Position numbers and translations under genes: made by a program. Positions 935-59,600 of a DNA stretch of 64,000 nt are shown in pieces. The stretch spans positions 126,232,001-126,296,000 of the forward strand of contig OZ024745.1 in NCBI GenBank assembly GCA_964016885.1, given 5' to 3'. The stretch's first letter is position 1; each line of letters starts with the position of its first letter. Source of the DNA: Eledone cirrhosa (taxonomy: Eukaryota). The notes beneath the pieces are model-generated. The model worked only from the letters and a program-made list of their open reading frames with translations. It was not told where the DNA came from and did not search any database.

Positions 935-1478
935 TACAGAGTGTCGCCCCCCAAAACGTATACACACTACAACATTCTCATAAATGTATGTGTACATTTT
1001 TTGGCGACACCTGTATATATATATATATATATATATATATATATATAAGCAAAGAGATATTTAATTTGTTGGTTATTCAACAAATTTATTTATAACAGAT
1101 TCGAAGCACTCTACAGTTTTCTTCTGGAGTATAATATCAATGATATTAATAAATGGAAACTATCTTTATAAAACCGTATTTATTTTATTATATATATTAT
1201 AGTTAAGATTTCAAGGGTACCAAAATTTTGGTGAGCTCTCCTCATCAGATAAAATACAAAAGTTGTTTTATAAATATTGACATATGCAAAAAACAAGAAC
1301 TTATTCTCATAAATGTATGTCTACATTTTTTGGCGACACCTGTATATATGTATGTGTATATATATATATATATATATATATATACAGGGTGCCCCCCCCC
1401 CCCCGCAAAAAACCCACAAATGTATACACACTACAACATTCTTATAAACGTATGTATAGATTTTTGGGCGACACCTAT
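935..1478. mobile_element. Cluster of tiny Tc1/mariner-type MITEs (~935-1014, partial ~1300-1344, ~1383-1478)
   Basis: Ends tacagagtgtcgcc...ggcgacacctgta form TIRs with TA flanks; the internal tatacacactacaacattct is shared between copies. Confidence 0.7.
1181..1256 (-). ncRNA. Degenerate hammerhead-like motif in a solo PLE terminal-repeat copy (homology ~1142-1285)
   Basis: Minus strand tattttat-CTGATGA-...-ccttGAAA-...-TA-ataaaata; flanks match 53357-53500 and 56686-56825; stems II and III are disrupted. Confidence 0.5.
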
Positions 1479-1983
1479 ATGTATGTATGTATGTATGTAT
1501 GTATATATATATATATATATATATATATATAGAGAGAGAGAGAGAGAGAGAGAGAGATATGTGCATGTGTTTTTCTATAAAGGCAAATTTCTTTGCATAA
1601 TGTTTGTCTAACGTATGTAGTTTGATATTAGTTTTAAAAGCATTTTTTTTTTAGCTGTAGAGCACATTAAAGTTGTCCAAACAACAAGTGTTTTTAAAAA
1701 TGTAGTAGTTTCTTAACTTAACCAAACAATTGATTGAGTTCGTTCGATTAGTGTGACTAAATCGCCGAAATATAAAGTTAGTTGTATGCCTATTTATCTT
1801 TCTCAGACATTCAACAATATGGTCGGTGTATACGCAAATATACATATTAGATACTAACTATACAGTAGCTAACTAAGCTAGGGTAGACACAGTCAACGAA
1901 GACAAACACCACCACCACTATATTCTTCTCTCTATCTAGCTGTCTATCTAACTACACAGAAAGATATCTAACTACACGTGTGT

Positions 1984-2087
1984 ATATGAAAAATTCGGTA
2001 CCCTGGCGGCTGAGCTCCTGCCGTTTCAACGGATCTAGCTGTTGAAATGGCAGGAGCTCAGCCGTCGGGGTCCCGAATTTTTCATAT
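1984..2087. repeat. Imperfect ~104-bp palindrome containing the 3' half of a hammerhead motif; rearranged second copy at ~2131-2220
   Basis: atatgaaaaattcgg...ccgaatttttcatat arms; GAAA-tggc/gccg-TC-ggggtcc; homologous to 49560-49676. Confidence 0.8.
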
Positions 2088-55122: not shown

Positions 55123-55562
55123 TGTTAGAAATCAAATAACAATGAAGATTTAGTTTATATATGGTTTACTTCACTTCAATCAAAAAGTACAATAATACAA
55201 GTTACCAAGAGTTGCGAAGGTTGATGTTGTCGTCGTGAGTCTGAGACCATAGTGAGAGAGGGAGAGAGTAATGGTTTGTATACCTCTGAATGGTCTGTAG
55301 TAGTTCTCGTCGTTAGTCTATTGTCTCTGTATTTCTGTAGACCACTGGGGTCTGTTGATAGCGGTGAATCTTCACATAGCTTGTTGTATGTCGTGGTGCT
55401 CCGATGTCTCTGGCTAAAGTGGGCTGATACAGGCTTTATATACCTGTGGCTTCCTGTCTCCCACATTGAGGGGATCAACCTGTTCACACCAAGAGGGTAG
55501 TAACCTAGAATTTAACCTTTAGGTGTTACCCAAGGTTCAAGGCGTGGACAGATCTCGCTACA
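55123..55562 (-). mobile_element. Possible solo LTR
   Basis: TG...CA ends and a TATAAA-like motif on minus; no TSD found. Confidence 0.3.
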
Positions 55563-56685
55563 TATATCTAGTTGGAAACACTGTCATTCTATTCTATATA
55601 AAATGGTAGTGGTGCGAATATAAACTGTGAGAAAATTAAAGGAGCCGATCCTCAGAGCGGACAAAGGAAACCACGATTCCCTTGGTGTTTCCATTGCTGA
55701 AACAATCTGTCTGTTGCAACTATTATCAGAACCATTCCCGCCAATCAACCGTCCCTGAAGTGGTACTTTATTTAATGACATCGAAAGGATGAAAGGCAAA
55801 GTTGATTTCGGCCGAATTTGAACACAGTGTAAACAACAAACACCGAAGGATTTCCTTCGATCTCTTGTGGCCCTGCAATTTGCGCCCTTTAGAAGTTTTG
55901 TTAAGTTCAACGCTCAAATGCAACACCTGTAAAATAAAGTAGGAAATCTACCAGGAATTAACCGTTGAATTAATTTTAAAAGCTGTTCCCTGTTTAAACA
56001 TTTTCACACACACACACACACACACACACACACACACACACACACACGCACACACTCACGATATGTTTTATGATAAGTAATAGGCCTTGTTACTGTGCTC
56101 TTACAGGATCATCAGAAAAGAGTCTTACAGTCTTACCAAATACATGCGTGAAACTACAGAGTACAAAAAGGCACCACTATAATAAAGAATAGTATTTAAC
56201 CCTAATTCAGTATTGAGTACTTATTGTCGTGTCTGTCACCCTCCCCCCCGTACACACACACACACACACACACACACACACACACACACACACACACACA
56301 CACACACAAACACACATATATATATATATATATATATTATTCTGAATAATAATAACTCCAGAAAACCTTTTTGTAGAGTGCTTTTAATCTATTCTAAAAC
56401 TATATTCATTGAGTAATCAATGAACCCTAATAATCTGTGGTTCATTTATTTTTTCATTTATTTTGTTTTGACCTGTTTAGCTTGATTTGCTTTTTGGCTT
56501 AGGTGGTTGATGCTTTCTTGACCACTTTTTCAGTTTTGTATGGCTTCTTAATATATTGTTTAGCTCTGGTTTTTAACTATTGAGCACTTTGCCAGTGTCA
56601 TTTCTGGTTTTTGCGTTTCGTTTCGCCTTTGCTACCCGCCGAAATGCGATTCTCGCTGAATCTATATTTGTATATATATATACAA

Positions 56686-59600
56686 TATATTAATAAATGG
56701 AAACTATATTTATAAAACTATATTTATTTTATTATACATATTTCAAGGGCAACCAAGGCAAATTATGGTGCGCTTTCATCAGATAAAATACAGATTTGTT
56801 TTATAAATAAATATTGACATACCCGGAAAAAAAGACAACATTAACGTTTGGAGCTTCCTGGATAGTTTAGATAGTACATTTATTTAGGGTAATACAATGT
56901 TATGAGTGAGTATGCAAATGAGTGTCCGAAAGGTTGAAAAGATAACGGTTTATTTAAATTAAACTGTTGCAAGAAGATGATATGTAAGGGAGAGAGATAA
57001 AAAAGAAAAAAAAGAACAAAAGAAAAAAAAGAAAAAAAAGAAAAAAAAGAAAAAAAAGAAAAAAAAGAAAAAAAAGAAAAAAAAGAAAAAATGAAAAAAA
57101 GAAAAAAACAAGAAAAAAAAGAAAAAAAAAGAAAAAAAGAAAAAAGAAAAAAAGAAACAAAGAAAAACAGAAAAAAGAAAAACGAAAGGAGAAAGATAGA
57201 AGAGGAAAGAAAGAACGATTATATGTATTGATAGTGAAGATAGAGTGCATGAAGAAATAAGTTTCAAAGGATAAATATATAAAGCATAAATATATCTAAG
57301 TGAAAGAAGAAATAAGATTAACGTGGAAGAATAATATTTATAATGCAGGGTTCATTACGTTTTGATTATAATACTTATAATGATAGGTTGAAAAATTAGA
57401 TTAAAATTAAAAATTAGAAATCAAAATTAAAGATTAAAATGTGCCTTAATATTAAAGATTTAATTTAATAATTTAATATTAATAATTAGTTTAAATGTGT
57501 ATGTTAAGGATTATAAATTATTTAAATAAATATATAGTATTTTATAATTATATTATAAAAACAGTAAGGAAGTGTAAAGGAAGATAGAAGTGATTTTTTA
57601 AGATCTCAGATGACTCCAAGGATTAAATGTTATAAAGTTAAAAAGTTAAACATTTTTTATCTTAAGAATATAATTAAAACATGAACCATATGTTATTTTA
57701 TTCGAAGTCATAAATTTACTTGCTATAAAGTTAAAAAATAAAAAAAAAATTATCTTAAGAATATATTTAAAGCATAAACCATAGGTAATTCCACATATAT
57801 ATAAAAACCTATATATAAAAATCATATGTTTTTCCACATATATATAAACATTTGGATATATATATTAAAAACATTTGAAGATATAAAAATATAAAAATAT
57901 AAAAATATTGGTAGGTATGAAAATAATGGTTTTTTTATATCTTTCAAAGGAATTTTCAAAAGATTTTTCCTAAAACCTTCCGTAAGTTTTTCAAGAAAAG
58001 TTTTTCTTAAAGGAGTTTCAAGCAGTCATATAAAAATTTTTTTATAATCTATCGATAGGTGTAATAATATAAAGTATATAGTATATATATGAGGTAGAGA
58101 TAATAGAAAGTAAATTAAATATATATGAATCATATATAGATATAGAAAACATTATGTAAAGGAGATAAATCATATATTACATTTTATATATATATATTTA
58201 AAAGTTGAGTTTAAACGATGTTTACAGGAACTAAATAAATTATTTCGCAAATTAATAGAGTTCTTACTTTTTAGTATAAAGAATATTTCTTCAACGCAAA
58301 GTGAGCAATTTTTGGATAAAGCAGTGTATGAAGGAGCTTTGGAAATAATTTTCCAAAGTAAAGAATAGTTAATATTCTTGGATTTTAAGTCCCATAATAA
58401 GTTAGATAGAGAAGTTGAAGATTTTTTACCAATATTCGTAAAGGAACATTTATGGTTATTAAAACGAGATTTGAAGTTTTTGGAAGTAGAGCCGACATAG
58501 TTAAAGGAGTTTTCATTTGTTTTGACATTACAATTGTATACTATATTTTTAACTAAATTATTATTTAGAGGACAGTTAGATTTATTTCTACAATTACATT
58601 TATCTGAATTTATATTATTGGGAGCCGTAACATTATATTGGATATTGCTAGGGGTATTAATGCTATTCTGGTTAGGTTTTAAGTTTCTATTATTAATTCT
58701 ATAAATATATGCTGCGCTAAATTCATAGTGGTGGAATATGAGAGTTTAATAGTTTGTCTATTAAAGATTGAGTAATACCTGTGTGTCTTAGGAAAGCTCC
58801 TATCTAGAGTTTTAAAGAATAATTTAGCTATAGGAGTTTTAATACTTAACGAGAAAGGGAGAGCGAACCATAATATATTTCTAGTTCTATTTTTTCTTTT
58901 GGTTTTCGAGTTAGTGCAAGGTTTACTATTATAATAATATTTATAGTTATGGTTAATTGGCACATCCTTATTGTCAATGTATTTAATTTCATTACCTGCC
59001 TGCCCTACCTAACACTTCGTTATAATATTGTGCCTTATCTTCAAATATATTTTTATTCGCTGAAATTCTAGAAATATGTTTCTGCACAGAATTTACAATA
59101 GTGTTTTTAACGGATCTGGGGTGATTGGAATTAAAGTTAACATAGTTTAAATTCTCATTTATTTTATGAAATGTATAATCAAGACCAGTATTAAGGTTTA
59201 AAGTTACATCTAAAAAATTAACTATTTTATAATTATTCTCTACTTCTACTTTAAGATTAACGCTATTAAAAAATTGTATAATTTCTCTTCCTATTTATTT
59301 CACAATTAATATTATTTTCAATAAGTAATAGCATATCGTCACGATATAAACCAGCGGTCATCTCCGGTATTTTCCTATGTAAAGTATTGTTAATAAAAAG
59401 CCCCACAAGATCCGTTAATTGCGCCGAGTCAGATGACCCCATAGTGATATCGAAATTGTTATCCTATCTGCTCTAGTCCAAAGGTGGTTGCTAAATTCAA
59501 TTAATGTTTTAGTGCAGTTAAGATAATGTGCATTTCATTATCTTCTATATATTTAAATGCATATGTAAGGGCTTTATTAAGTAGATTAGGAGCGATAGAT

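Follow-up and report, generated by a model that had tools for sequence, protein, structure and literature searches.

A 64,000-nucleotide stretch of the Eledone cirrhosa genome (contig OZ024745.1, positions 126,232,001 to 126,296,000; hereafter the window) carries many small islands that resemble hammerhead ribozymes. What are these islands, and do they act on host RNA? A previous sequence-only reading described them as an archipelago of hammerheads seeded by Penelope-like elements (PLEs), potentially able to cut any transcript crossing the locus. Its observations hold, whereas its interpretation survives only in part. From comparisons of genomic sequence, we assign a probability of roughly 80% to the reading that the islands are hammerhead-bearing ends of Penelope-like retrotransposons, mostly of the Hydra clade, residing in (TA)n. 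Their source was likely RNA copied in uncut form, so the islands are probably transposition by-products and would rarely cleave host transcripts. That Penelope-like repeats contain hammerheads is already known.

A type I hammerhead descriptor was run on both strands of the window, with 30 local dinucleotide shuffles serving as the control. The canonical CUGANGA core yielded 5 matches compared to 0.1 in shuffled sequence, and the count rose to 8 versus 0.33 when U3-A8 cores were added and to 11 versus 1.9 (shuffle maximum of 5) with relaxed cores. All nine complete type I folds proposed earlier were recovered, some with shifted starts (24186+, 24972-, 29210-, 36927-, and 37028+), and the extra relaxed matches at 47815+ and 32293- are probably due to chance. 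The type I core (CUGANGA...GAAA...UH or an active covariant) is present in canonical form at only five of the nine sites (16922+, 24972-, 48428-, 53397-, and 56725-) and as the U3-A8 variant at two (36927- and 37028+). The family B sites at 24186+ and 29210- carry U4A plus a U10.1.U11.1 mismatch, and hence do not have the U4 of a type I hammerhead. The same mismatch occurs at 24972-, where stem II has only 2 bp. Among seven window sites that were folded, the hammerhead is clearly the minimum-energy structure of the monomer at 16922+ only (z -2.19). The degenerate copies at 1181- (family F, stem III insertion) and 41179- (family G, G8A) are upheld, the half copies at 1984, 24830, 49240, and 49560 are genuine 3′ halves, and the estimate of about eight sequence families corresponds to the eight named A to H here (Table 1). 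As claimed, the sites lie mostly beside (TA)n: 13 of 17 have (TA)5+ within 250 nt downstream, versus 22.5% of random positions. A repeat search of the window was dominated by microsatellites.

Table 1. Hammerhead-bearing islands in the window (positions are those of the window).
Positions	Strand	Island
1040..1276	-	3′ remnant of family F (Hydra PLE); stem III of its degenerate hammerhead (~1177-1256) holds an insertion
1985..2250	.	Fold-back 1985-2086 of H2, related to family H, with its centre in stem II; a third arm begins at 2132; only 3′ halves of the hammerhead
16740..17161	+	Retrozyme-like monomer of family A; canonical hammerhead 16922-17003, stem III of 8 bp
24024..24259	+	Remnant of family B (Hydra PLE); tail at 24024-24109 inverted; U4A-core hammerhead closed by a U.U pair at 24186-24236
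24664..24903	-	Remnant of family E that breaks off within the core; tail at 24865-24903 inverted
24932..25064	-	Remnant of family C (Hydra PLE); hammerhead at 24972-25007 is minimal, its stem III palindromic
29198..29315	-	Remnant of family B with a U4A hammerhead at 29210-29260
36794..37132	.	Fold-back of family D (- arm long, + arm short); U3-A8 hammerheads 36927-36962 (-) and 37028-37063 (+)
41123..41292	-	Old copy of family G (74-82% to relatives) with a degenerate G8A hammerhead at 41179-41262
48262..49031	-	3′ end of a family E PLE; hammerhead at 48428-48472, part of the endonuclease at 48795-48956, inverted stretch at 48957-49031
49234..49328	.	Half hammerhead in a fold-back of family B that breaks off in loop II
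49483..49673	.	Short fold-back of family H, its - arm long-tailed and its + arm short-tailed, without first core half
53341..53635	-	Remnant of family F with a hammerhead at 53397-53461; tail at 53563-53635 inverted
56672..59836	-	Family F, 5′-truncated Hydra-clade PLE; broken RT, GIY-YIG frame, 3′ UTR, hammerhead 56725-56790

PLE terminal repeats (pLTRs) account for six of the window's eight families, namely B, C, D, E, F, and H. In each, a single ORF encoding an RT, with a GIY-YIG endonuclease at its C terminus, lies upstream of the hammerhead. The endonuclease was found upstream on the same strand at 11 of 30 loci for family C, 4 of 30 for B, 5 of 30 for D, and at least 6 of 30 for family H parents, and it is present within the window for families F and E. 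The F endonuclease is an open 191-aa frame (58173-58745) carrying CxCX5C, CxxC, and CxH, in an element flanked on both sides by TA tracts. These same-strand links and the TA junctions support the proposal that several PLE lineages and their short derivatives colonised TA tracts. Judged by the motif definitions of PMC8557442, namely the CxCX5C linker plus CxxC and CxH in the endonuclease, families B, C, F, and H belong to the Hydra clade. Families D and E have a CX4CxxC linker instead, which is of the Neptune/Nematis type (CX2-5CxxC). From its motifs, family E may belong to Neptune. Pfam matches of the PLE ORFs fall below curated cut-offs, and the full F and H ORFs have no Pfam match.

Complete pLTR-ORF-pLTR copies exist for families F (L297, 743 aa) and D (L307), the family H parent forms 3531-bp tandem units, and partial pLTR tandems, an inverted 5′ copy, and an optional tail are seen at L297, L307, and L316-L326. 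The core is conserved in 37 of 40 family D copies, 38 of 43 family C copies have CUGANGA, and 52 of 54 family B copies carry CAGAAGA (U4A). A genome DNA search with family E, using a method that skips common words, returned no match; the evidence for this family comes from window and flank copies (9 in one comparison, 20 in another). In all, 2214 relatives were obtained, most of those listed being ~40% identical, and each endonuclease query gave ~60,000 first-look candidates, which are not copy numbers. Short matches to the query "Hydra_RT_L044" reflect a SINE inside it and were discounted. Islands of six families could be linked to PLE ORFs, but not those of A and G, which have no collinear ORF within 1.5 kb at 30 loci each. 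Family A is retrozyme-like: dimers spaced by 474-475 bp occur at 2 of 7 loci checked, which fits a tandem repeat without an ORF whose units measure 150-1000 bp and hold a single hammerhead. Family G is old and ORF-less, with a canonical core in 11 of 15 copies. That A and G have no ORF link, and that D and E are not Hydra, weighs against the PLE-end reading.

Stem covariation among genomic copies, whose absence had been named beforehand as a possible refutation, was found between subfamilies of F. In 20 sequences, 93.5% of cells are paired and 10 of 21 pairs show changes on both sides; the covariation score, counted on family F with a control that ignores relatedness, was reached by none of 500 shuffles, and slid controls were 34-52% paired. 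Further pair types were not above shuffles (476/500). The stem III palindrome of this family is maintained from TATATA to TGCGCA in 9 of 53 copies.

The window is not a special archipelago. The motif density in 59 evenly spaced 10-kb regions of the genome equals that of the window, with a ~20-fold excess over shuffles. We estimate about 190,000-310,000 complete motifs genome-wide, or ~1 per 10-15 kb, based on thresholds 11 and 13, distributed among at least 14 multi-copy hammerhead families. The threshold-9 estimate of 436,000 was rejected, as it is inflated by one hammerhead-like 277-bp satellite that fills locus L252.

Copy ends offer some insight into how the islands might have formed. Copies show two alternative 3′ ends, one with a long and one with a short tail. 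Long tails end in TA in 97 of 100 family H copies, 23 of 23 for C, 35 of 43 for B, 20 of 24 for D, and 15 of 16 for F. By comparison with the predicted ribozyme cut site, none of 61 copies has its 3′ end there and only 4 of 118 begin there, with ends drawn from local alignments and therefore fuzzy. The half copies at 49560 and 1984 derive from a very young Hydra element (family H) with a 716-codon ORF, of which 13 intact ORFs are 99-100% identical. Its parent was found via shared upstream sequence and has a U3-A8 core; a pattern search for a canonical core had returned 38 junctions, mostly chance, and type II or permuted hammerhead, HDV-like, pistol, and twister folds, judged by eye, were dropped once the parent was found. 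The first core half is missing in 27 of 30 sampled family H arms. Of 48 family H 5′ ends, 45 lie within loop II or beyond it (+42 or later), including 29 at +42..+52, and none falls between -189 and +41. Both arms of the window's fold-back at 49483..49673 begin at this loop II position, and a long tail is paired with a short tail in 48 of 49 family H fold-backs. A splice junction does not account for the boundary, since short copies retain the preceding (T)AG and share no common upstream exon. Family D has an equally sharp 5′ boundary ~40 nt upstream of the core, outside any hammerhead stem (11/15), and the centre of its fold-back in the window coincides with this preferred end. In family F, the 5′ ends seen at +36..+42 stem from divergence between subfamilies and were not treated as a hot spot.

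The mechanism we propose, drawn in part from in vitro work (PMC11167929), is that the element protein nicks both strands of the palindromic TA target and that cDNA begins at two internal positions a short way beyond the ribozyme. Short islands would arise from cDNAs that end prematurely or extend to the RNA 5′ end, and head-to-head joining of two of them would give the long-tail/short-tail fold-backs. We propose that short family H copies carry half a ribozyme because the RNA 5′ end, likely the transcription start, falls in loop II. A more detailed version is tentative. It holds that the active Hydra element starts transcription within loop II of its own hammerhead, leaving a 5′ repeat with half a ribozyme that could not self-cleave and a 3′ repeat with a whole one. 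Priming at two sites on the 5′ repeat, one per nicked TA strand, would produce strong-stop-like cDNAs that are normally passed to the 3′ repeat. Failures of this transfer would be integrated as ~10^5 short arms, and the resulting load, which includes a fixed U4A family, would rank among the densest reported for hammerheads.

Short H copies might instead owe their fixed 5′ end to an RT that stalls, or a cDNA that snaps back, at the long hairpin of stem II, or to self-priming with antisense RNA or DNA as template, an explanation that we regard as conceivable but doubtful. The boundary does sit where the 3′ strand of stem II has its apical end, and palindromic inverted pLTR junctions have been interpreted as self-priming on antisense RNA (PMC3846280). 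However, parental loop II sequence is in none of 34 distinct H fold-back junctions listed (L202 extends past the boundary), H copies outside fold-backs begin at the same place, and the equally sharp family D boundary lies outside any hammerhead stem. It is improbable that the short elements are independent non-autonomous families, either retrozymes or MITE-like, that replicate as units via circular RNA. Although the family A dimers, the L252 satellite, and one H junction that recurs 15 times (among loci picked by similarity to it) are as expected for such units, the other H junctions vary between copies, short H copies are without the first core half, and the ends of six families are collinear with autonomous ORFs. 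Chance resemblance within AT-rich repetitive DNA is an extremely unlikely source of the motifs. Loose descriptors do find matches in shuffled windows, and in Rfam no hammerhead family appears among the best 150 of 317 window matches, nor did focused scans of two sites match a hammerhead model, those matches listed being sub-threshold miRNA-type hits caused by fold-backs and microsatellites. Against this stand the excess over shuffles, the covariation, and the fixed position downstream of PLE ORFs, which refute chance for the nine complete sites and leave it applicable only to 47815+ and 32293-.

The proposal that the scattered hammerheads serve as active self-cleavage sites by which host transcripts are cut, terminated, or circularised is not supported, and we consider it quite unlikely. 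In its favor, cores are conserved within families C and D, the monomer at 16922+ is predicted to fold as a hammerhead and looks competent, two intact F copies 3.3 kb apart on the same strand could dimerise, and U3-A8 cores are active in vitro (PMC3088659). However, most stems III require a dimer, PLE minimal hammerheads cleave poorly (PMC4209133), a published one does not cleave without the element's protein (PMC11167929), and of 9 Xenopus retrozymes just 1 showed cleavage (bioRxiv 10.64898/2026.07.22.740005). Selection acting while the element passes through its own cycle, together with the young age of the copies, accounts for the conserved cores. A search for host exons in the window found none, and no sense-strand depletion was found in a small sample of myosin introns, where 12 sense and 9 antisense motifs (21 in 10 of 18 gene spans, some covered in part) give low power. 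Many of these motifs are in fold-back pairs, which force strand symmetry; the 36927/37028 pair likewise represents opposite strands of one fold-back. Motif density in these introns is 0.68 per 10 kb versus ~1.1 in the genome sample. The scarcity of copy ends at the cut site also speaks against cutting, but does not prove that cleavage is absent, as cleaved RNA may be useless as a template.

The PLE-end reading places the islands in a known kind of system with an unusual load. As in the X. tropicalis description, the hammerheads have a type I fold, a short palindromic stem III, an extra base after A9, and the U3-A8 variant, and there are many families per genome, mostly as solo copies, with opposite-strand pairs. 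The estimated load here is ~2-3 x 10^5 compared to ~9,000 there, with differing descriptors. The fixed U4A family and the ~60-nt stem II of family H are not among the variants in the portion of that description compared, but earlier literature may contain them. The Hydra clade (Craig et al. 2021, PMC8557442), whose known hosts include molluscs, shares the single ORF with C-terminal GIY-YIG, the CxCX5C linker, DKT, CxxC, and CxH, the hammerhead in the pLTR, and insertion into (TA)n, which is also found here. That clade was described from sequence as few additional families generally under 3 kb, whereas we find at least four lineages with units of 3.5-3.9 kb, one having near-identical intact copies. 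Poseidon_Ac (Frangieh et al. 2024, PMC11167929) matches the mechanism proposed here in having two internal positions where RT starts, which produce short and long tails, nicking of both strands, uncut RNA as template, and no RNA ends at the cut site. It is from another clade, and the genomic evidence here adds the fixed 5′ boundary and the 48/49 pairing of long and short tails. Family A and the L252 satellite resemble non-LTR retrozymes (PMC7229834; bioRxiv 10.64898/2026.07.22.740005) in being units of 277-475 bp that hold no ORF and a single type I hammerhead, in contrast to the six families that are ends of autonomous PLEs.

These findings call for caution in annotation, since islands that match miRNA models and resemble MITEs are nevertheless PLE ends. 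The abundant short copies, with their fixed 5′ end and paired long and short tails, record steps of transposition, and the young intact Hydra element is suited to biochemistry. Finally, the number of complete motifs and multi-copy families in this genome is sufficient for a decisive intron strand-bias test of host-RNA cutting.

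The hammerhead motifs in the window are real hammerheads of known kinds, namely those of Penelope-like element (PLE) terminal repeats (pLTRs), the Hydra clade and retrozymes. When both strands were scanned with a hammerhead descriptor, canonical cores gave 5 matches compared to 0.1 in shuffled sequence, canonical plus U3-A8 cores gave 8 compared to 0.33, and relaxed cores gave 11 compared to 1.9. All nine sites described as complete type I folds in the sequence-only reading were retrieved, and the two further matches (47815+ and 32293-) probably arose by chance. The core is canonical in just five of the nine. 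The family D sites (36927- and 37028+) have U3-A8 cores, reported as an active covariant (PMC3088659) that also occurs in PLEs (PMC4209133). Family B, represented by 24186+ and 29210-, carries U4A in 52 of 54 copies; a fixed U4A family was not found in print, although Lunse et al. 2017 and supplements of the papers may include such core variants. Stem II is closed by U.U in families B and C. Among seven window sites folded, a clear monomer hammerhead fold was obtained for 16922+. Rfam scans of the window and focused scans of two sites returned no hammerhead model among the matches listed (the best 150 of 317 for the window).

Judged from sequence, the hammerhead structure is under selection, as seen in the stems of family F. 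In 20 diverse sequences, 93.5% of stem cells are paired, compared to 34-52% in slid structures, and both sides have changed in 10 of 21 pairs. The covariation score was reached by none of 500 shuffles, which ignore relatedness, and one of five covariation measures did not exceed the shuffles. Stem covariation, whose absence would have counted against the sequence-only reading, is present in this family. In 9 of 53 copies, four bases of stem III have changed with the palindrome intact. N7 is occupied by all four bases among family F copies, the other core positions being fixed by the selecting pattern. In a separate count, core positions were tallied in seven families by anchoring on the flanks.

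The density of hammerheads is ordinary for this genome, and the view of the window as a special archipelago does not hold. With one descriptor at three thresholds, the window yields 10, 6 and 5 matches, compared to 9.3, 6.7 and 4.1 per 64 kb, net of shuffled background, in 59 evenly spaced 10-kb regions (91, 65 and 39 raw matches versus 5.1, 3.1 and 1.2 shuffled). The matches form 35 clusters, 14 of them multi-copy. Extrapolation to the 3.0-Gb genome at the two stricter thresholds gives 314,000 (95% bootstrap 209,000-440,000) and 192,000 (121,000-275,000) motifs. Reported counts are about 9,000 for X. tropicalis (PMC4209133), about 5,000 for mussel and up to 120,000 for axolotl (PMC7229834), whose genome is 28 Gb (bioRxiv 10.64898/2026.07.22.740005). 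The load here is above the reports found, a provisional ranking because descriptors differ between counts. By title or abstract, no paper on hammerheads in octopus or cephalopods was found, and the words hammerhead and ribozyme are absent from the available text of a recent O. vulgaris repeat annotation (PMC13282606).

Families missing from the window, several with U3-A8 cores, occur in other regions (L226-L265, L336-L354) and in myosin introns (L355-L386). U3-A8 is present in 24 of 84 matches, 16 of them in a cluster dominated by one satellite (L252, G000:C7:30000001-30010000). This satellite has a period of about 277 bp with a U3-A8 hammerhead-like motif in each unit, giving 44 matches across the two strands of a 10-kb region, and its array resembles retrozymes.

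Most of the island families are linked to PLEs, as had been proposed, and the sites mostly lie beside (TA)n: a TA tract is present within 250 nt downstream at 13 of 17 sites, compared to 22.5% of random positions. Searching the genome yielded between 371 and 1,439 first-look candidates per family (family E excepted). A same-strand endonuclease lies upstream at 11 of 30 loci for family C, 4 of 30 for B and 5 of 30 for D (one locus each of B and D having supplied the query), and for family E within the window. Complete pLTR-ORF-pLTR copies were found for F (743 aa) and D. Families B, C, F and H share the CxCX5C, CxxC and CxH motifs that are reported to define the Hydra clade (PMC8557442), and D and E have a CX4CxxC linker. 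No linked ORF was found at 30 loci of family A, which resembles retrozymes in forming dimers spaced 474-475 bp; family G is old and lacks an ORF. Long tails terminate in TA in most copies of five families: H, 97 of 100; C, 23 of 23; B, 35 of 43; D, 20 of 24; F, 15 of 16. At one locus (L308:2750-3150), the family C ORF start is directly preceded by an inverted-repeat element with a family E-like tail. The SINE-like repeats tabulated below resemble cephalopod SINEs, a likeness by which the host is probably an octopod.

PLE remnant and other repeats in the window
Feature	Position	Strand	Remarks
5′-truncated PLE	56672-59836	-	broken RT, open GIY-YIG frame, 56725 hammerhead
Non-LTR retrotransposon RT fragment	53894-55090		RVT_1, DUF6451; split by TA tract
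LINE-like ends	14810-15439, 23345-23737, 47146-47544		akin to 53894-55090
Mariner/Mos1-type transposase remnant	45669-46408		PF17906, PF01359
SINE-like repeats	e.g. 16281-16605, 26015-27206, 42473-43459		two families of 11-17 copies
Minisatellites	11348-11742, 32804-33027		periods 48 and 93 bp

The half copies at 49560 and 1984 proved to belong to family H, which is the terminus of a young PLE of the Hydra clade with a 3531-bp unit in tandem arrays. Head-to-tail arrays of the intact element lie at L316-L317 (G000:C1:437.20-437.21 Mb, period 3531 bp) and L325-L326. Among loci chosen for long open frames, 13 of 13 ORF copies are intact and 99.2-100% identical; the frame starts within the hammerhead, about 68 codons upstream of the likely ATG. 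In its full form, the H hammerhead combines a U3-A8 core with a roughly 60-nt stem II and corresponds to the minimum-energy fold. Its first half is absent from 27 of 30 arms in sampled regions. Of 48 copies encountered during the sampling of other families, 45 start no earlier than +42, 29 of these at +42 to +52, the edge of loop II, and none starts between -189 and +41; with a second reference, 50 of 53 start at or after the boundary. In family D, 11 of 15 copies share a comparable boundary some 40 nt before the core, and in B 10 of 47 show a less pronounced one where stem I begins. A 5′ boundary within loop II was not found in print.

We infer that the H boundary may be a transcription start. 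The H and B boundaries carry TTAGTY, which resembles an invertebrate initiator. An internal promoter is reported for D. virilis Penelope (PMC2377424). Reverse transcriptase stalling, snap-back or antisense self-priming could instead produce the boundary, the last having been put forward for palindromic inverted pLTR junctions (PMC3846280). H fold-back junctions are mostly unlike one another, and 48 of 49 fold-backs have one long and one short tail, a near-obligate pairing not found in print. At L203 and L218, the H boundary is the point where a 5′ hammerhead half from family E meets a 3′ half from H, and these chimeras suggest template switching between PLE lineages.

The islands would be cDNAs that were primed at TA and copied from RNA left uncut, that either were truncated or extended as far as the 5′ end of the RNA, and that frequently became linked as head-to-head pairs. 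None of 61 copies has a 3′ end at, or up to 3 nt from, the predicted cut, and 4 of 118 have a 5′ end there. This genomic pattern is consistent with the mechanism reported for an anole PLE (PMC11167929), whose protein in vitro nicks both strands of AT-rich DNA and reverse transcribes from two internal sites on uncut RNA, and whose hammerhead cleaves only with the protein.

The sequence-only reading had also suggested that these sites could cut transcripts crossing the locus. A scan of 146 frames in the window revealed no host exon, the matches being limited to transposon-type and DUF entries. In 308 kb from 10 myosin genes, a small sample in which five genes lack motifs and many motifs are fold-back pairs, intact motifs number 12 sense versus 9 antisense (p 0.66), with a density of 0.68 per 10 kb versus about 1.1 in the genome sample. 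Minimal PLE hammerheads are reported to cleave weakly even as dimers (PMC4209133, PMC6765202), and one of nine Xenopus retrozymes to cleave (bioRxiv 10.64898/2026.07.22.740005). The sites probably cut host RNA seldom, and 16922+ would be the best candidate for genuine activity.
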